Shown here: in pieces, positions 1 to 26,570 of the stretch
Numbering within the stretch: position 1 is the stretch's first letter
How the letters are laid out: every line of letters starts with the position of its first letter
Origin: a virus
Taxonomy: Duplodnaviria > Heunggongvirae > Uroviricota > Caudoviricetes
Strand: one strand, 5' to 3'
IMG/VR virus record: IMGVR_UViG_2724679058_000007
DNA: 35,236 nt
Made by a program: the position numbers and the translations under genes
Notes under the pieces: model-generated
The model's database searches: none
What the model saw: only the letters and a program-made list of their open reading frames with translations
What the model was told of the DNA's origin: nothing

Positions 1-77
1 ATGAAACCCGGACCTGAACATGTCTTATTGCGTGATTGTTTCTTTCATTTGATACTGCATTTCCCAGAGTTCAGTAA

Positions 78-134
78 GCGAAATGATGCGCCGCGCGATA
101 AATGCGCCCATTTCCGTGAGATAAATGGCATCGC
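78..134. repeat. Candidate transposase-binding end repeats (possible phage right end)
   Basis: Direct repeats of GATAAATG at 97-104 and 120-127 (23 bp apart) plus related AAATGATGCG at about 83-90, immediately outside the invertase gene. Resembles my memory of Mu R-end sites (CGATAAATGCG); not verified. Confidence 0.3.
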
Positions 135-161
135 TGCGGCGTTTCAATATTTGCAAAAGAA

Positions 162-742
162 TTACAATCCTACCGCGTCACCCTTTCTCTGACCATCTAC
201 CGGAAAATACCGGTACAACGTCGATAACCCCACTCCATAGATAATGGCCAACTGCTGACGGGTATGCCCCTTAACCAATAGCCGTGCAATCTGCTCCCGC
301 TCATGCGGCTTTAATGCGTTGGGCCTTCCACCTGTGCGTCCCTGTGCTCTGGCAGCTGCAATCCGGCAAGTGTGCGTTCAACGATCAGCTCACGTTCCAT
401 CTCCGCCAGCGCCGACATCACATGGAAAAAGAAGCGTCCCATAGCAGTGCTGGTATCAATACTGTCTGTTAAAGAGCGGAAGTGGGCACCGCGTTCATGT
501 AACTCTGATATCAATGCGATCAGGTTCTTAACGCTGCGCCCCAGCCTGTCCAGTTTCCACACGACCAGGGTGTCTCCGCTATTAACGCACTTTAAAGCAC
601 GTTTCAGACCGGGACGGCTGGCAACTTTTCCGCTCATACGGTCTTCAAAAATGCGGTCACAGTTTGCGCTTGTGAGTGCATTACGTTGTAAATCGCTGTT
701 CTGGTCGATTGTTGATACGCGGATATAACCAATGACGGCCAT
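162..742 (-). pseudogene. gin: Gin/Hin-family serine DNA invertase, reading frame interrupted by a 1-nt deletion near 350-362
   Basis: From ATG at 740-742 the product reads MAVIGYIRVSTIDQNSDLQRNALTSANCDRIFEDRMSGK...SLTDSIDTSTAMGRFFFHVMSALAEMERELIVERTLAGL, a serine-recombinase catalytic domain. It then runs into a stop at 311, while a shifted frame continues AAARAQGRTGGRPNALKPHEREQIARLLVKGHTRQQLAIIYGVGLSTLYRYF to a stop at 162-164 (HTH domain). Confidence 0.8.
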
Positions 743-805
743 CAATTCTCCTCCTCTATGTTGCGGTGGGAGGATTTTCACAGATTTCGCTACGTGCAAC
801 TGCTT

Positions 806-830
806 TTCCAAAAACCTTGGTTTGGGAGAA
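806..830 (+). repeat. hix/gix-like invertase crossover site (left)
   Basis: TTCCAAAAACCTTGGTTTGGGAGAA; its 19-bp core CAAAAACCTTGGTTTGGGA (809-827) recurs as a perfect inverted copy at 3004-3022. Resembles Hin/Gin sites as I recall them (AAACCAAGGTTTTTGA). Confidence 0.8.
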
Positions 831-1304
831 GGCTCTGCATTGCCTGTTGGTGTGCCTGTTCCGTGGCCTTCAGCCACTCCGCCAACAGGCTGGCTGAAAT
901 GCAATGGTGCGGCTTTTTCTGCTGAAGAATACCCGGAACTGGCAAAGGCTTACCCGACAAATAAATTGCCTGATTTACGCGGTGAATTTATTCGCGGCTG
1001 GGATGACGGGCGCGGGGTTGATGTTGGGCGTGCTTTATTGAGCCTTCAGGCTGGGATGCTGGAAAAGCACCGTCATATTGTTGTTGCCAATGATGGTTAC
1101 GACACAAAAGATGAATGGGAACTGGCTACGATTTTCAAAAAGACATACACACAAGGACGGGGACTTGATGCCACAAATACAGGAGGGAGTCTGATCCCAT
1201 CACCGACACTTCATTCACGAGGGAGTATCGGTAATACTGGCGGGAGTGAAACCCGTCCACGAAATATTGCATTTAACTTTATCGTGAGGCTGCATAATGG
1301 ATAA
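809..1304 (+). CDS. Alternative tail-fibre C-terminal variable region (Sv'-like), promoterless in this orientation
   Basis: ORF 732..1304 contains FSKNLGLGEGSALPVG, matching PALFVKNLGLG in the expressed fibre gene on the other strand. Only the part distal to the crossover site would be fused to the constant region after inversion. Confidence 0.6.
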
Positions 1305-1899
1305 CGCCGTATTAAATAGCGAGCTTATTGCCACGAAGGCGGGGAATATTACCGTCTATAACTATGATGGTGAAACTCGGGAATATATTTCCACTTCAAA
1401 TGAATATCTTGCCATTGGTGTCGGTATCCCTGCATATTCCTGTTTAGATGCCCCTGGCACACATAAGGCGGGTTATGCTATCTGCCGTTCGATGGATTTA
1501 AACTCATGGGAATATGTGCCAGACCATCGCGGTGAAGTTGTCTATAACACCGAAACGGGAGAATCAAAAGAAATCACAGCTCCGGGTGATTACCCTGAAA
1601 ATACAACCACTATCACCCCTTTATCTCCATACGATAAATGGGATGGTGATAAATGGGTGACCGATACTGAGGCACAGCATAGCGCCGCAGTAGACGCGGC
1701 AGAAGCACAGCGTCAGTCACTGATTGATGCTGCAATGGCTTCCATCGGTCTGATTCAGCTGAAATTACAGGCCGGACGGAAGCTGATGCAGGCAGAAACA
1801 ACCCGGCTTAACGCTGTGCTGGATTACATTGACGCGGTGACGGCAACAGATACCAGCACCGCGCCGGATGTCATCTGGCCTGAACTGCCGGAGGCGTAG
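1297..1899 (+). CDS. Tail fibre assembly protein (U'-like, partner of the alternative fibre tip)
   Basis: 200 aa; C-terminal WVTDTEAQHSAAVDAAEAQRQSLIDAA...LNAVLDYIDAVTATDTSTAPDVIWPELP is the typical Tfa chaperone motif; start overlaps the Sv' stop. Confidence 0.75.
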   Translation: MDNAVLNSELIATKAGNITVYNYDGETREYISTSNEYLAIGVGIPAYSCLDAPGTHKAGYAICRSMDLNSWEYVPDHRGEVVYNTETGESKEITAPGDYPENTTTITPLSPYDKWDGDKWVTDTEAQHSAAVDAAEAQRQSLIDAAMASIGLIQLKLQAGRKLMQAETTRLNAVLDYIDAVTATDTSTAPDVIWPELPEA

Positions 1900-2314
1900 G
1901 CCATTCAATATCTGGCGCACCGGAAGTATCGACCATTTCCAGTGCGTCCAGGTAATCCAGCCACGCGTTATACTGTACCTTTTCGGCGTCTTTCAGCCGT
2001 CCCATTGCAGCTTTTCCCGGCCATTGCTTGCTGTTCATGTACTCGTTAGCCTGGTCGATTAGCAGTTGTTTTTGTGCTTCAGTTGCTGCAACAAGTTCAT
2101 CGTGCGTTGGCGGCGGAATATCACCCCAGGCAGGAAAACCATCTTCACCAGCAATGCGGATTTTCCCTTTCGGTGGTTCGCCTGAATACTCAATAAACAG
2201 TTCTTCATCAACCTCCTTAGCATTGTCAAAATTCATTCCATTTGATTCATAAATTTCCTTCATAGCTATCGGATAGAAAGCATTTGTAGATACATCATAA
2301 AAATATTTATTCAT
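1871..2314 (-). CDS. Tail fibre assembly protein (U-like)
   Basis: Start taken at MNKYFYD; C-terminal ATEAQKQLLIDQANEYM...YNAWLDYLDALEMVDTSGAPDIEWPTPP Tfa motif; AT-rich; immediately downstream of the tail-fibre gene. Confidence 0.75.
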   Translation of the reverse strand: MNKYFYDVSTNAFYPIAMKEIYESNGMNFDNAKEVDEELFIEYSGEPPKGKIRIAGEDGFPAWGDIPPPTHDELVAATEAQKQLLIDQANEYMNSKQWPGKAAMGRLKDAEKVQYNAWLDYLDALEMVDTSGAPDIEWPTPPAVQAR

Positions 2315-2319
2315 TCTAA

Positions 2320-3501
2320 TTATCTCCCGATTGCAATCCATCGAGCGTAAATAAAGGCTGGTGATGATGTTGAATTTAATAATTTGAACTGAGTATTGCT
2401 GATAGGTTGAGCTGCAAAGCTATATACAGCTGAAGCGCCAGCGTTATCATAAGAAGCAACAAGCTGAACTGTACTGTAATTTGTAAAAGGTACGGGGAAA
2501 TTTATAGTCTGCGGATCTCCAATTTGACCAGAGGCTGCAATACCCCACTGGATAATAGTACCTCCTGGTAAAGATGCCCAGCCGGTACCGCTTGTAAAAC
2601 TTGACATATCCGGTATTTGTCCAGAACCTGTACCCACATTTTTTGTTGCCGCCGTTCCAAGCCCGGAAATATCAGATGATGTTGGTTTAAATCCTGTGTG
2701 GTACAACTTATACCAGTCAGAAAATGCAGTATCACTCGCTTTTATCCTCACACTAAAGTCAGGAATGGAACCGAGAGACGCACCGCAGATTTGCCACCCG
2801 GTTGAACCTGAGTTAGCAAATGAAATACCACCAGCCCACTGCCCAGGATAAGGACCGATATTATCTGCAGGGGCAAAATAATCAAAGCGACTGACGTCCA
2901 ACGTCGCCATAGTTCCGCTTACCTGGGCTGCCTTTATTCCAAGCCCCCACCCGCCATTTAAAGCAATTTTACCCGTTTTATCTGTGAAGGATGATTGCAG
3001 TGTTCCCAAACCAAGGTTTTTGACAAACAGCGCCGGGTCAGGAATATCAGCGCCGTTCTGGTCTTTGGCCAGCTTCTCCGCCAGCTTGTTCAACACAGTG
3101 GTCGCAAAATTCGGATCGTTGCCGAGGGCATCAGCCAGCTCTTTGAGCGTATCCAGCGTCTCAGGGGCGCTGCCTGCAAGCGCCGCAAGTGCTTTGGCCA
3201 CAAACTCCGTCGTCGCCAGCTTCTTGCTGTTATCGCTATTTGCAGGCGTAGGCGCTGTTGGTGTGCCGGTGAATGTCGGGCTGGCTTTCGGTGCGTACTG
3301 GGTATGCGGGTCTGCTGCCGCGATATGTTTCGCAAGGTCAGAACCGCCATTTTCAACCTGTTGCTTCAGGTACAGCGTGCGGCTGGCCAGTTGTTTACCC
3401 TGACGGTTAGAAATTCCGTCAGGCCCGCCCAGAACGGGGTCAGAGACCTCAATCTGGTAGATGCCCTCTTCCCACTGCGGGGTTTCAGGTAGGTTTGCCA
3501 T
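2320..3501 (-). CDS. Tail fibre protein (constant N-terminal part plus currently expressed variable C-terminal part)
   Basis: 393 aa, MANLPETPQWEEGIYQIEVSDPVLGGPDGISNRQGKQLASRTLYLKQQ; the hix-like site falls at about codon 160; the C-terminal two thirds are AT-rich and Gly/Ser-rich. Confidence 0.85.
   Translation of the reverse strand: MANLPETPQWEEGIYQIEVSDPVLGGPDGISNRQGKQLASRTLYLKQQVENGGSDLAKHIAAADPHTQYAPKASPTFTGTPTAPTPANSDNSKKLATTEFVAKALAALAGSAPETLDTLKELADALGNDPNFATTVLNKLAEKLAKDQNGADIPDPALFVKNLGLGTLQSSFTDKTGKIALNGGWGLGIKAAQVSGTMATLDVSRFDYFAPADNIGPYPGQWAGGISFANSGSTGWQICGASLGSIPDFSVRIKASDTAFSDWYKLYHTGFKPTSSDISGLGTAATKNVGTGSGQIPDMSSFTSGTGWASLPGGTIIQWGIAASGQIGDPQTINFPVPFTNYSTVQLVASYDNAGASAVYSFAAQPISNTQFKLLNSTSSPAFIYARWIAIGR
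3001..3025 (-). repeat. hix/gix-like invertase crossover site (right), inside the tail-fibre gene at the constant/variable junction
   Basis: Plus strand TGTTCCCAAACCAAGGTTTTTGACA; inverted copy of the 806-830 site. It encodes the shared KNLGLG motif in both tail-fibre variants. A compositional break (GC-rich constant part versus AT-rich variable part) coincides with it. Confidence 0.8.
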
Positions 3502-3503
3502 AA

Positions 3504-4081
3504 TTAACTGCTCCCGTGGTTATAGCTACCGTCATAGTTGACGGTGTTGTTGTAGCGAATGGCGACAGACTGATACTCAAGGCTCGCCAGATGGCAGCGG
3601 GCCGGAGCAAAGGCAGCGAGCGTCTGGCGTAACAGCGCCGCCTGATCGTTAGTAATGGGCTGCTGAAGGATGACGCGATAGACCGCCCAGCTTCTGCATC
3701 GCCATGGACGAAAAGCCCGTTGTACGTGTGTTTGCCGTCGTAGCCAATCTGGCCAGTGCCTTCAATCAGATCCACTTCGCCGAAGCCGAAACGGCGGATA
3801 ATTTCCCGGATTGACCACGGCGTCCCTTTATAGCGGTGCAGCTCGATAGCAGATTTGATAAGCATGCGGCGTACATCGTCCGATTCCGCCAGCTCCCAGC
3901 CATCGCCAAACAGCGAGAACTGCTCGCCCAGCCATGGCAGCGCGGAACTGTCGACGATATCGACGAGATAGACCATCAGTACGCTCAGGTCGATGTTATC
4001 CAGCCGCCCGGCCAGTTTTCCCAGCGTTCTGAGGCTGATATCACCCTCAAGCGGCGGCGGGAGTTGTAGCGGCTCAGCCAT
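3504..4081 (-). pseudogene. Tail/baseplate protein, P2 gpI-like (DUF2313-like), with an apparent frameshift near 3685-3702
   Basis: Frame of ORF 3485..4081 gives a plausible N-terminus up to ...GQIGYDGKHTYNGLFVHGDAE, then low-complexity residues (RSIASSFSSPLLTIRRRCYARRSL...). A shifted frame reads ...AVYRVILQQPITNDQAALLRQTLAAFAPARCHLASLEYQSVAIRYNNTVNYDGSYNHGSS and stops at 3504-3506, 2 nt before the tail-fibre start. Confidence 0.6.
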
Positions 4082-5177
4082 CGGACACCCCGGTCATGTT
4101 AAGAGTGATCGCCGTGCAGTTTGCCCATTCGTTTTCTGCCACCACCCGCAGTGGCGGTGTCACCAGTTCAACCTGGTACACCCCGGAGACGGACAACACA
4201 CTGATAATCTGGCTGGGAACAATATCGCGCCCCAGCGTGGCGGTACGTGATGCCACCCAGTTCTGTATGGCGCTGTTGGCGTTGTCCTTTACCGAGTTGG
4301 CATCCTGGTCGCGGTAGATCGTGATATTGGCTTCAATGGTGTAATCCACCTGCAGAGGTGTTTTAGCCCGCACGGTATCAGTAAGTGGCCTGACTTTTTC
4401 GTCAGAACAGAAACTCTCTACCAGCGTGAGGATGCTGTCGTCCGGCAGGCCGGTACTGAGCAGCGGATACAGCTCTACGGTACCGGGGACCGGGGAAAGC
4501 ACGGCAACATCGACAATGTTGGGATGGGCCTGCATGGCATGAAAGCGGTATGCCATACGGCTTCCGGCGTTGGTGAATGACTCCGGGGCCAGTTTGATAC
4601 GCTCGCGGAGCCTGTCATTGTCTTCCTGCTCAGAACCGCCAGAACTGGCCGCCATATTGGTCACCTGCAGGTCGACGTTATCAATCTCATCGAGCAACTG
4701 ACTGACCTGCGCAGGCTGCCAGCCGTTGCCTGCGGCTCCCGGCTCGGTACAGGTGGCCGTGGCATTGACAAGCAGCAATCCGGCTTTCAGCACTACGTCC
4801 GTATCGGTTGCAAAAATAATGCTGTCGGAAGCGCTGACGCGGGTACCTGCCGGAATCAGCACATCAATGGCCAGTTCCTCATCCACGGAGAACTGGAGCG
4901 TGGTGGTGGCAGGCTGCGCGGCCAGTCGGTATACACCAACCAGTTCACCGAGGTAATCAATCATCGGCTCACGGGCAAAGGCGACCAGATTCTGTTTGGC
5001 CGCTTCCTGCGCCGCCACCCTGACCAGCATTTCGCGGTATGCCCACAGGTCAATCAACAGGCGCTCAGCCTGAGCGGGGTATAGCGTCTTGCCAGTTGCG
5101 GCTTCGTACTGTGCAATCATTTCAGCCGTGATTTTGTCAGCATCACGTTCAATAAAATCGGGTTCTGTCAGCGCCAT
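4074..5177 (-). CDS. Baseplate J-like protein (Mu gp47 / P2 gpJ family)
   Basis: 367 aa; position between gpW-like and gpI-like genes; overlaps both neighbours. Confidence 0.75.
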   Translation of the reverse strand: MALTEPDFIERDADKITAEMIAQYEAATGKTLYPAQAERLLIDLWAYREMLVRVAAQEAAKQNLVAFAREPMIDYLGELVGVYRLAAQPATTTLQFSVDEELAIDVLIPAGTRVSASDSIIFATDTDVVLKAGLLLVNATATCTEPGAAGNGWQPAQVSQLLDEIDNVDLQVTNMAASSGGSEQEDNDRLRERIKLAPESFTNAGSRMAYRFHAMQAHPNIVDVAVLSPVPGTVELYPLLSTGLPDDSILTLVESFCSDEKVRPLTDTVRAKTPLQVDYTIEANITIYRDQDANSVKDNANSAIQNWVASRTATLGRDIVPSQIISVLSVSGVYQVELVTPPLRVVAENEWANCTAITLNMTGVSDG

Positions 5178-5515
5178 AGCAACTCCTGAGTCCGGGGTTG
5201 TCCGTCAGAGCCTTTCCAGCTCACCCGGAGCGTAAGATGTTCGCCGTCGACGGCGGGTTTAACCGACATAAGCTGGCAGCGAGGCTCCCAGCGGCGAATG
5301 GCATCGACGGATTCGCGCACCACATGCGGAATAGCCCGGTCAATAGGCCAGTCGATATAAAGGTGCAGATTGCTGCCGAACTCCGGGCGATGCGGGTCGC
5401 TGCCGCGAGGAGTACGCAGGATGATTTGAATGGCCTGCCAGATATCATCCAGCCCCCGGACGATTTCGCCAGGGGCCTGCAGAGCCGGTTGCCAGAATAC
5501 TGAGGTTGTTTTCAT
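5168..5515 (-). CDS. Baseplate wedge protein, GPW/gp25 family (Mu gp46-like)
   Basis: 115 aa; size and synteny; MKTTSVFWQPALQAPGEIVRGLDDIWQAIQIILRTPRGSDPHRPEFGSNLHLY. Confidence 0.7.
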   Translation of the reverse strand: MKTTSVFWQPALQAPGEIVRGLDDIWQAIQIILRTPRGSDPHRPEFGSNLHLYIDWPIDRAIPHVVRESVDAIRRWEPRCQLMSVKPAVDGEHLTLRVSWKGSDGQPRTQELLWR

Positions 5516-5569
5516 GGGGGCAGTATTGCCCCTGTGCGGGAACGCCGATATTAAAGGCGTTTAAGAAGG

Positions 5570-6082
5570 TCAGTGGGAATGGTGATTAGAGTTCGGGCCG
5601 TCAGAGAGCATGCTGCCTGTCGAGTGGGCATTGCCGTTGATTTCAAGGTTGCCGTTCACCGTGGTGGTGTCAGCGGTCAAATCAATGGTTTTCCCCTTCA
5701 GGCTGATACCCACTGCAACCTCGATCACCACATGCTCGATACCACCTTTGACTGTCAGCGTATGGGTCGCACGGTTATAGCTGAACTCTGCGCCATCCGC
5801 GTATTTCGTGCCCCGGACATTTTTGTCGCTGAACGGCGGTTTATCGACTTCTGAGTACACCGCGCCCAGAATGACACCATCCTCGCCGTTGGCATCGAGC
5901 AGCACCTCAACCTGCTCCCCCACGTCAGGGAGCCAGTAATCCTTGTTATCCTGGGTATTGCGCTGCAGCACGTTAAGCCAGTTAGTGCGCAGGTTATCGC
6001 ATTCCGGCAGACGAACGCGGGCCTGAACCTTGTCGGCATCGACGGCGCTGACCGTACCGACCTGACGGGTGACGCCTGTCAT
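5570..6082 (-). CDS. Baseplate assembly protein V-like spike (Mu gp45-like)
   Basis: 170 aa; synteny downstream of the D-like hub gene. Confidence 0.7.
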   Translation of the reverse strand: MTGVTRQVGTVSAVDADKVQARVRLPECDNLRTNWLNVLQRNTQDNKDYWLPDVGEQVEVLLDANGEDGVILGAVYSEVDKPPFSDKNVRGTKYADGAEFSYNRATHTLTVKGGIEHVVIEVAVGISLKGKTIDLTADTTTVNGNLEINGNAHSTGSMLSDGPNSNHHSH

Positions 6083-17900: not shown

Positions 17901-18722
17901 TTATCCTCTCAGTTCCTGCTGTGCCAGCGGTTGAAGCGTACCCTGATAGCGGGCAAGGTCGGGACGGTATGCAGCCCCCGGCGCATAAGACCAGCCGACG
18001 TCGGTGGCCACCTTCGTGGTGCCGGTATTGAAGGTAGCGACATTCTGCATCTCGCCTGTTTTCTCTGAGACCAGCTTCAGCTCCCATCCCATGGCTGAGC
18101 CAGAACCTGACACCTTCAGGCCACGGGCACGCACATCCGCCGCGCTCAGGGCAATCACGCCACAACGGCAGCGCCAGCCGTTCGGCGGGTAGAACGCCTG
18201 CCAGAACGGGTCATCATAGCGCAGCACCAGACCATGCAGCGCCAGATGGCTCTTGCGGGTATGGCTGTCGTTGATGCCGGTATACATCCAGTACGGCCTG
18301 TCGTCGACGTTCTCCATCTGCTCGGCCCAGCGACCGGCGCTGTAGAGTACGGACATATTGGTGCGAAAGATGGTGTCGAGCCGCCACGGGCTGCCCTGCT
18401 GGATGGTGACCGGCTCGCCCGTTACCGGGTCGGTGGTATCACGTGGCCCCCACCATCCCTTGCGCTGCAGCTCCGGCTCCAGCTCCTGCCGGAACCAGCG
18501 GCCTGTTTTTCCTTCATCGACAGCCTGCTGCAGTGCCCCGCGAATATCTTCCAGGATATCAAGGCGGGTCACTTTGGCGACGGTAAAGGCGCGGGCATGG
18601 GCATCCTGCCACATCTCCTCCCAGTCCCACGTGAAGCTATACCCTTTGGACTTCAGGTAACTGATAGCCCGTTTGGGGGGCAGCGTCATGCAGTACGCCA
18701 GTTCAGCCGTTGTCACGCTCAT
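17901..18722 (-). CDS. Head morphogenesis protein (Mu F-like)
   Basis: Start taken at ATG (MSVTTAELAYCM...) preceded by a GGGGG Shine-Dalgarno-like run; contains YSFTWDWEEMWQDAHARAFTVAKVTRLDILEDIRGAL. Confidence 0.7.
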   Translation of the reverse strand: MSVTTAELAYCMTLPPKRAISYLKSKGYSFTWDWEEMWQDAHARAFTVAKVTRLDILEDIRGALQQAVDEGKTGRWFRQELEPELQRKGWWGPRDTTDPVTGEPVTIQQGSPWRLDTIFRTNMSVLYSAGRWAEQMENVDDRPYWMYTGINDSHTRKSHLALHGLVLRYDDPFWQAFYPPNGWRCRCGVIALSAADVRARGLKVSGSGSAMGWELKLVSEKTGEMQNVATFNTGTTKVATDVGWSYAPGAAYRPDLARYQGTLQPLAQQELRG

Positions 18723-19197
18723 GCAGACGCCCCCAGACAGTTGCAACAAACATAATCCGTGCCAGCCGTTCCTGCAGGTCTTCAGCTTTCATCTGCGGGT
18801 ACAGCTCGGCCAGTTCGCCCAGCAGCTCAGACGGATTGACGCCATCTTCAACCCGCTTAAACAGAGGAGCCAGTACGGGTTCCAGCGTGCCATTTAACGC
18901 GCCTCCGTTCATCAGAATATCCAGCGCGTCGTCCAGGGCCTGCTGTGCCTGAATATCGGCATCAATCGCCTCGGCAAATGACAGCGGCAGCATGTTCTTC
19001 TGGCGTTCTGACGGTGGTGTCTCGTCAATATCACCGTCCTGCAGCTGGTACTCACGCTTGAAGTATTGCGGGGTGAAGACCACACCGGCACGGCTGAGTT
19101 TCTCGTCGCGGGTTGCCTGGGTATCGTCGACCGTTCCCTGTTCCCACATCTTCCAGACGGGGCTGGCCACATCGCCAAAGTTCATTGATACCGCCAT
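18703..19197 (-). CDS. Probable C-terminal part of portal protein (or separate 164-aa protein)
   Basis: Acidic 164-aa ORF that overlaps the stop of the upstream portal ORF by 16 nt; together the two ORFs total about 500 aa. Confidence 0.45.
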   Translation of the reverse strand: MAVSMNFGDVASPVWKMWEQGTVDDTQATRDEKLSRAGVVFTPQYFKREYQLQDGDIDETPPSERQKNMLPLSFAEAIDADIQAQQALDDALDILMNGGALNGTLEPVLAPLFKRVEDGVNPSELLGELAELYPQMKAEDLQERLARIMFVATVWGRLHERDNG

Positions 19198-20198
19198 CCT
19201 GATGGCTGATTCACCGCGCTTTCCACGATATCAGCGTCAGCGTCACGGATATCATCGGTGACTTCCAGTCCGGCCTGCGCGGAGGCGCGGTTACTGTTGG
19301 CCTCGGTGGTCTGGTTCTGCCCCAGCAGGGCGATGGAGATTTCACTGCGGGCAAGCGTGATCAGGTTCTGATAAATATCGCTGCTGTCGGCCTTGCCTGC
19401 GGCCTCCTTAATTTCAATGGAGGAATCGTCGGGGATAGCGGCCACCGCGTCTTCCACCATTGCCTCCATGGAATCCAGCAGCAGGTCAATCTCACCCTGA
19501 GCGGTACCGCGCGGATGCTTGCCGATAACCCACGGTGAGCCATATTTCTCGGCAAAGCGCACCCAGAACTTCATGCCGCCTTTTTTGAAGGTCACGGGCC
19601 AGAAGCACATCGACAGGTCAGGGAAGCCATACGGGTTATCGTAGGTCGCGTCCTGACGCGGTACCACAAACTTGTTCAGCGGTACCGGCTCGCCTTCCAG
19701 CCCGGCGTCCTTGGCGCGAAAGCGCAGCAGGTTGTCGTTGTCGAACTGGAACCACTCAGGGGGTTTACCTACGATATCGGCAATGGCCCAGGATTTAACA
19801 GAGCGTCCCCACATGATCTCACAGGGCTGATACCCGTAGAGAACGGCGTCGGTCATCTCGCCGATGATGCGGGACAGATCCAGATCGTCGAGCATATCCC
19901 GGATGAAGCTGAATACCCGCGCCGGGGCATGACCACGTTCAAGACCGCGCTCCAGCGATTTGACCGCCGCCTTACGCCTGCGGATGCAGCCACCGACCAG
20001 CGGGTCGGTACGCAGCTCGCGATAGATGCGGATATCCCGGCCCTGAGATTTCAGAATGGGGTCAGGGTTAGGCAGGTACATCCCCAGCCCGAAGAAGTCG
20101 ATGGAACGGCTGCGCGAGGCGATCTGCTCCGTCAGTGTTTTATTAGGTTCGGCAAATTTGACGAACTCACTGGGTGAAACCCAGAGTCCACGGGCCAT
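19182..20198 (-). CDS. Portal protein, Mu gp29-like, N-terminal 338 aa
   Basis: MARGLWVSPSEFVKFAEPNKTLTEQIASRSRSIDFFGLGMYLPNPDPILKSQGRDIRIYRELRTDPLVGG; directly downstream of the terminase large subunit. Confidence 0.7.
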   Translation of the reverse strand: MARGLWVSPSEFVKFAEPNKTLTEQIASRSRSIDFFGLGMYLPNPDPILKSQGRDIRIYRELRTDPLVGGCIRRRKAAVKSLERGLERGHAPARVFSFIRDMLDDLDLSRIIGEMTDAVLYGYQPCEIMWGRSVKSWAIADIVGKPPEWFQFDNDNLLRFRAKDAGLEGEPVPLNKFVVPRQDATYDNPYGFPDLSMCFWPVTFKKGGMKFWVRFAEKYGSPWVIGKHPRGTAQGEIDLLLDSMEAMVEDAVAAIPDDSSIEIKEAAGKADSSDIYQNLITLARSEISIALLGQNQTTEANSNRASAQAGLEVTDDIRDADADIVESAVNQPSGWRYQ

Positions 20199-25799: not shown

Positions 25800-26570
25800 A
25801 TGAAAGAACAATCTTTACCCATCGTTCCATGGATTGGCGGCAAACGTCGTCTGGCTAAGCATATTCTGCCGCTGTTCCCGGCCCATACCTGCTATGTGGA
25901 GCCGTTCTGTGGGGCCGCTGCGCTCTATTTTCTTAAGACACCCAGCAAGACCGAAGTCATTAACGATATCAACGGGGAACTGGTGAACCTCTATCGGGTG
26001 GTCAAGCATCATCTGGAAGAATTTGTTCGCCAGTTCAAATGGGCGCTGGTCAGCCGTCAGATTTACAAATGGTTGCAGGATACGCCGGAAGAAACTCTCA
26101 CCGACATTCAGCGGGCGGCCCGGTTCTACTACCTGCAGAAACAGGCGTTTGGCGGCAAGGTGGCCGATCACTCGTTCGGAACCTCCACCACAAGTGCGCC
26201 GCGCTTTAACCTCCTGCGCATCGAAGAAGAACTGTCGATGGCACACCTGCGCCTGTCGAGAACGCTGATAGAGCATCTGGACTGGCACCAGTGCATAGAG
26301 CGATATGATCGCCCGCATACGCTGTTCTACTGTGACCCACCATACTGGGGAACAGAGGGCTATGGTGTGGAGTTCGGGCTGGAAAACTATGATCACATGG
26401 CAGATTTAGCGCGAAGGATCAAAGGGAAGATGATTATATCAGTGAACGATATCCCGGAAATGCGGCAGGTATTCAACGGTCTGAACATGCAGTCGGTTGA
26501 TATCAGCTACAACCTTAAGGTAACAGGTAAACCCAGCCCGAAGAAAGAGCTGGTAATTTGTAATTTTTGA
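25800..26570 (+). CDS. dam: DNA adenine (N6) methyltransferase, Dam family, orphan
   Basis: 256 aa; N-terminal PIVPWIGGKRRLAKHILPLFP, AdoMet motif EPFCGAAALYF and catalytic DPPY (FYCDPPYWG); no adjacent restriction enzyme recognised. Confidence 0.8.
   Translation: MKEQSLPIVPWIGGKRRLAKHILPLFPAHTCYVEPFCGAAALYFLKTPSKTEVINDINGELVNLYRVVKHHLEEFVRQFKWALVSRQIYKWLQDTPEETLTDIQRAARFYYLQKQAFGGKVADHSFGTSTTSAPRFNLLRIEEELSMAHLRLSRTLIEHLDWHQCIERYDRPHTLFYCDPPYWGTEGYGVEFGLENYDHMADLARRIKGKMIISVNDIPEMRQVFNGLNMQSVDISYNLKVTGKPSPKKELVICNF

Follow-up and report, generated by a model that had tools for sequence, protein, structure and literature searches.

As it was deposited, the DNA invertase gene at the right end of this Mu-like prophage is out of frame by a single base. 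We put the probability at roughly 93% that this frameshift is an error of the draft assembly LNZU01000044.1 rather than a phage mutation; for the invertase site, this judgement rests on its association with the other lesions that we describe below. Most likely, the true gene encodes an intact serine invertase of 193 amino acids from the Gin/Hin family, and there is no new biology in the frameshift. The DNA that we analysed (35,236 nucleotides; "the window") comes from Escherichia coli and contains a transposable, Mu-like prophage whose tail resembles that of P2. Its features, and the differences in the host DNA beside it, are collected in Table 1.

Table 1. Features of the window, and indels in the adjoining host DNA
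Feature	Position	Strand	Remarks
E. coli host flank (DUF2625 gene)	1..83		prophage end starts at 84 with TG
Gin/Hin-family serine DNA invertase gene	162..742	-	581 nt, out of frame as recorded; 582 nt and 193 aa with one base restored
Minor-groove arm and HTH_7 DNA-binding domain, residues 128-193	162..362	-	readable only in the -1 frame; Pfam PF02796
Premature stop of the predicted 143-aa invertase product	311..313	-	sequence as recorded
Missing-base site in the invertase gene	359	-	single C (gene-strand G); all relatives compared have two
Catalytic (resolvase) domain segment, residues 1-128	359..742	-	Pfam PF00239, Gin alignment (PDB 4M6F/3UJ3), tblastn
Left crossover site, TTTCCAAAAACCTTGGTTTGGGAGAA	805..830		inverted repeat; inverted partner of 3001-3026
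Silent alternative fibre C-terminal segment	822..1304	+	3' end changed by a one-base G loss
Invertible tail-fibre segment, about 2.2 kb	831..3000		bounded by the crossover sites; layout matches annotated relatives
Alternative tail-fibre assembly chaperone	1297..1899	+	
Tail-fibre assembly chaperone for variable part 1	1871..2341	-	Pfam Caudo_TAP on the equivalent gene in relatives
Tail-fibre gene, presently expressed orientation	2320..3501	-	393-aa ORF through the right site; constant N-terminal part and variable part 1
Right crossover site, TGTTCCCAAACCAAGGTTTTTGACAA	3001..3026		within the tail-fibre gene, codons for KNLGLG
Tail protein I gene, frameshifted by one missing G	3485..4081	-	single G at 3690; relatives have CCAGGCTT
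Mu-type portal gene (DUF935), frameshifted by one missing base	18703..20198	-	GGC at 19204-19206; relatives have GGCC
Host-flank indel 1			T10 vs T8 in NZ_CP042896.1
Host-flank indel 2			A7 vs A6, at the start of chiQ
Host-flank indel 3			T8 vs T7
Host-flank indel 4			CCAGGCTTC -> CCAGCTTC; breaks the chiP frame
Host-flank indel 5			CGGGGCT -> CGGGCT, in chiQ
Host-flank indel 6			CAGGCTTGG -> CAGGTTGG

The two halves of the invertase gene

The gene starts with the ATG at 742-740. Its first frame runs from MAVIGYIRVST (opening MAVIGYIRVSTIDQ) to ERTLAGL and then goes on as QLPEHRDAQVEGPTH until the premature stop. The -1 frame picks up from AAARAQGRTGGRP and carries AAARAQGRTGGRPNALKPHEREQIARLLVKGHTRQQLAIIYGVGLSTLYRYFPVDGQRKGDAVGL as far as the TAA at 164-162; this downstream frame is wholly open, and its amino acids are identical to those of an intact relative. 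Pfam finds the resolvase domain in the first piece (PF00239, E = 3e-44, residues 3-129) and HTH_7 in the second (PF02796, E = 1e-13). Similarly, when the repaired protein is compared with the window by tblastn, residues 1-128 match 742-359 in frame -1 and residues 128-193 match 362-165 in frame -3, and no second invertase is found in the window. The DNA-binding domain joins the catalytic domain in a single 193-residue chain only once one base is restored. An initial annotation of this DNA had described a catalytic domain that reads cleanly up to ERTLAGL with the helix-turn-helix in another frame, and the frames, Pfam, and tblastn all agree with it. It had also proposed that one G was lost from a GG run near 357-358: a G is indeed lost, while the position is 359, so the proposed site was off by one or two bases.

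At that position the window has a lone C where the relatives have CC, or on the gene strand TTGCA in place of TTGGCA. For example, the prophage of E. coli 21KM1392 has GCTGCCAATCC and the window has GCTGCAATCC. Apart from this missing base, the window from 84 to 831 is identical to the prophage of 21KM1392, with no substitutions.

With the base added back, the protein is identical at all residues to WP_119174190.1 from E. coli 21KM1392. The initial annotation had also suggested aligning the repaired protein to Gin, Hin, and Cin; when we did so, it proved to be a Gin/Hin-type invertase. Residues 3-182 align with Gin of Mu (PDB 4M6F and 3UJ3; E about 3e-77), and Ser10 aligns with Ser9 of Gin, which is the residue that was mutated to alanine in 3UJ3. 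So the gene encodes the resolvase-type N-terminal catalytic domain with a nucleophilic serine that is found in the Din invertases. The 52-residue DNA-binding domain of Hin (PDB 1HCR) aligns to residues 139-187, all of which lie downstream of the lesion. The repaired protein is 65-69% identical to Cin of P1 and to other phage invertases.

The exact repaired protein sequence is present on 34 contigs, and we found an intact 582-nt gene in all four of the relatives that we opened and an intact 193-aa gene in three further relatives. Complete E. coli genomes gave 24 matching records from 23 genomes, and in every one of them a gene annotated as "recombinase family protein" lies under the match. In contrast, the frameshifted products (143 or 197 amino acids) match none of about 15 billion proteins, and we found no independent support for the lesion within the same lineage. 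An exact search with 32-mers, in both the frameshifted and the intact form, found neither among viral contigs, metagenome contigs, or contigs from species-representative genomes. Nor did an exact look-up return a match for the truncated invertase, the fibre protein of 393 aa, or the ORF across the junction, because the source record has no protein products for these genes. Its copies of these genes are probably annotated as pseudogenes.

Errors across the source contig

We identified the source of the window by an exact look-up of one of its chaperone proteins, which led to the GenBank draft contig LNZU01000044.1 (GCA_001611725.1); positions 1-5899 of the window are 100% identical to this contig. 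The one paper we found that cites LNZU00000000 describes it as an E. coli from Brazil with a blaKPC-2 IncQ1 plasmid and states that nothing further about it is available. Host DNA precedes the prophage on the contig, and a comparison of 9,263 nt of it to the complete genome NZ_CP042896.1 gave no substitutions and six indel events, all of the homopolymer type (Table 1). The frame of chiQ is shifted twice. The frame of chiP is visibly broken, and the contig has no ChiP protein on record. About one indel per 1.5 kb in core genes without a single substitution is not biology; it is the signature of miscalled homopolymer lengths.

The prophage part of the window has lesions of the same class. Besides the invertase gene, the genes for tail protein I and for the portal are each frameshifted by one missing base, and the downstream frame of tail protein I is intact and matches that of its relatives. 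Also, the alternative fibre segment has GG at 1288-1289 where three relatives have GGG, which alters the last codons before the chaperone start. In all four cases, a run of G followed by C is one G short: the contexts are TT[GG]CAG in the invertase gene, CA[GG]CTT in tail protein I, CA[GG]CCA in the portal, and GA[GGG]CTG in the alternative fibre segment. A CAGGCTT context is common to the host flank and the lesion in tail protein I.

Substitutions are few in the prophage too. From 9000 to 35236, the window differs from the prophage of 21KM1392 by one substitution and by the deletion in the portal gene. A mosaic block at 3-9 kb contains a further deletion relative to 21KM1392, in tail protein I. 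Outside of the mosaic block, the comparison with this prophage gives 3 deletions and 1 substitution, and the fourth deletion in the prophage, at the end of the alternative fibre, shows up against the three other relatives. Thus, indels far outnumber substitutions against near-identical references, and this holds for core genes too. The conserved genes around the invertase are not free of such lesions, as a true pseudogene would lead one to expect: chiP, chiQ, the portal gene, and the gene for protein I all have single-base indels.

The portal lesion recurs. A frameshifted portal fragment that lacks the same base is on record in the Logan contig ERR4561406_502. This contig represents a different haplotype: it is 97.3% identical overall, it differs from the window by 15 SNPs over the 1.7-kb portal region that we compared, and it has four further one-base deletions in T runs. 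The intact GGCC is present in eleven other loci from ten different assemblies. Error-rich data that show one lesion on unrelated backgrounds speak for a reproducible miscall and against inheritance. Such recurrence on another haplotype in error-prone data was seen at the portal site only; we observed none for the invertase site.

The pattern on this contig resembles the errors in homopolymer length that affect drafts: A/T runs of 6-8 nt gain a base, short runs of G lose one, substitutions are absent, and core genes come to look like pseudogenes. Artificial frameshifts that arise from such miscalls have been documented for flow-based and for long-read data (PMC10688829; PMC12007338). A difference is the marked preference for a GGC context that we see here. 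We did consider methylation by Dcm or Dam as the cause of the errors and dropped this idea, as only the site in protein I lies in a CCWGG motif.

Error, mutation, or recoding

Given these observations, we infer that the invertase lesion is one of the contig's errors, in which case one G of the GG run before the C would have been under-called in the deposited draft. The initial annotation had mentioned a homopolymer sequencing error as a caveat, and the indels in the host flank, the other lesions in the prophage, and the recurrence at the portal all support this explanation. Its headline idea, that the fibre switch may be locked, is not supported: core host genes without any substitutions have the same class of lesion, and the prophage has three more. 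Some points do count against an artefact. The run at this site comprises only two bases, fewer than in classic homopolymer errors, and the window's runs of 5-7 nt all agree with the relative. So if this is a sequencing error, then the error model is not the textbook one of long homopolymers. Also, apparently genuine frameshifted invertases exist elsewhere (P0116, from five runs).

An alternative is that the phage recently lost this base. The deposited sequence does read that way, the lesion precedes the entire Hin-type DNA-binding domain, and other data sets contain invertases with frameshifts in the same codons or close to them. A genuine mutation would leave a 143-aa catalytic domain that lacks the arm and the helix-turn-helix and is unable to bind to the crossover sites, and the fibre would stay in its current orientation unless an invertase such as PinE of e14 acted in trans. 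Yet lesions of this class also occur in the core host genes, once in about 1.5 kb and with 0 substitutions, and if these were real they would be incompatible with a viable genome. Two of the three other lesions in the prophage are in essential virion genes, the early and head-tail regions are nearly identical to those of an intact copy that is inserted elsewhere, and the mutant product is absent from all other assemblies. If indels make up 10% of real changes, then the chance of at least three indels in four events is about 0.004. All told, we consider a genuine mutation to be improbable. More improbable still is that the strain has an unusual mutational process specific to the GGC context and that all of the losses of G there are real; a freshly acquired Mu-like prophage would then have lost its invertase, portal, and baseplate genes at once, and the switch would be locked. 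Full expression of the protein by programmed ribosomal frameshifting or by transcriptional slippage at the junction has in its favour that two open frames abut, and nothing else. The junction, GGA TTG CAG CTG, contains neither a slippery heptamer nor a long homopolymer, and all of the relatives encode the invertase in a single frame, so we give almost no credence to recoding.

The frameshifted invertases in other data deserve a comment of their own. We found them in read-derived contigs, five with P0116 and one with P0081, and their frameshifts fall within about 8 nt of the homologous AGL/AAAR codons. Five separate sequencing runs contain P0116, which adjoins an EPSP-synthase (aroA-type) gene that is split in two in one of these contigs; P0116 may mark a real lineage or be a recurrent error. 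The proximity is not evidence that these codons are a real hotspot for frameshifts: it reflects ascertainment, as products with the aberrant tail rank higher in the search.

A real lesion would not automatically mean a frozen fibre segment, because invertases of this family act in trans. PinE of e14 inverts the G segment of Mu and the H segment of Salmonella, the latter of which is also a target of Fin from Fels-2 (PMC12529663), so the fibre segment could still be inverted by a resident Pin. More practically, the apparent pseudogenes on this contig (the invertase, tail protein I, the portal, and chiP) should not be taken as biology. Counting indels against substitutions in the flanking core genes is an effective quick filter for findings of "frameshifts."

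The prophage and its fibre switch

The prophage genes include a Mu-type portal, head genes similar to gp27, F, and G of Mu, an rve transposase and its AAA partner, GemA, Mor, and, at 25800-26570 of the window, a D12-class N6-adenine DNA methyltransferase. Close relatives occupy chromosomal sites that vary from strain to strain (at rlmC, at csgC, beside yihU, and at many other sites), which fits with transposition. The window ends at the stop codon of Mor, and the far end of the prophage and the target-site duplication lie outside of it. Near-identical copies of the prophage (window 84-35236; 13 loci compared) occur at many chromosomal sites in E. coli and are on record in other Enterobacteriaceae too. 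A 34.9-kb record that is filed under Vequintavirinae, OM835952.1 ("Klebsiella phage KP12 clone KP12_2"), matches this Mu-like prophage as well, and its invertase is 97% identical. It looks like OM835952.1 is a co-assembled prophage rather than a part of a Vequintavirinae phage. The prophage in the window is probably a complete Mu-like phage that has been active recently and has a functioning host-range switch.

Next to the invertase gene, two inverted sites of about 26 bp flank the adjacent segment, as in the Din family. A repeat finder reported them as 24-nt arms that are 92% complementary and 2,176 nt apart. The predicted invertase would flip the segment of about 2.2 kb between the 26-bp sites and would thereby swap the C-terminal half of the fibre and the chaperone. 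The inversion switch is probably intact and working. For the Fis-dependent recombinational enhancer that genes of Din invertases carry in their 5' part, a loose scan for Fis-like 15-mers (an unvalidated model) gave scattered matches and no convincing pair. The content of the invertible segment (window 832-3004) varies among otherwise near-identical prophages at seven loci. Those prophages differ in their fibre ends and in their chaperones, one of which matches in the inverted orientation; the differing content suggests that cassettes are exchanged at the crossover sites.

A close comparison is with the locus of WP_119174190.1, annotated as a recombinase family protein in E. coli 21KM1392 and in other Enterobacteriaceae. 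The surrounding 748 nt are identical, and the only differences are base 359 and the chromosomal insertion site (rlmC there, the DUF2625 gene here). Among better-known systems, the repaired protein resembles Gin of Mu and the rest of the Din family (Hin, Cin, Pin, and Fin) in keeping the RVSTxDQ active-site motif, the GRxGGRP arm, and the helix-turn-helix. As in Mu, the invertase gene adjoins an invertible tail-fibre segment that lies between 26-bp inverted sites with the core AAACC-NN-GGTTT, and like the G segment of Mu, this segment carries two alternative C-termini of the fibre, each with its own chaperone. We compared the crossover sites with gix as taken from the Mu record and with a hixL sequence; they differ from gix at 8 of 26 positions. 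Unlike Mu, the phage has an rve-type transposase with an ExeA/AAA partner and P2-like tail genes, its early operon ends with Mor at the other end of the prophage, and there are no com or mom genes past the invertase. Nevertheless, by every feature that could be tested at the sequence level, its tail-fibre switch is of the ordinary Din-family type.
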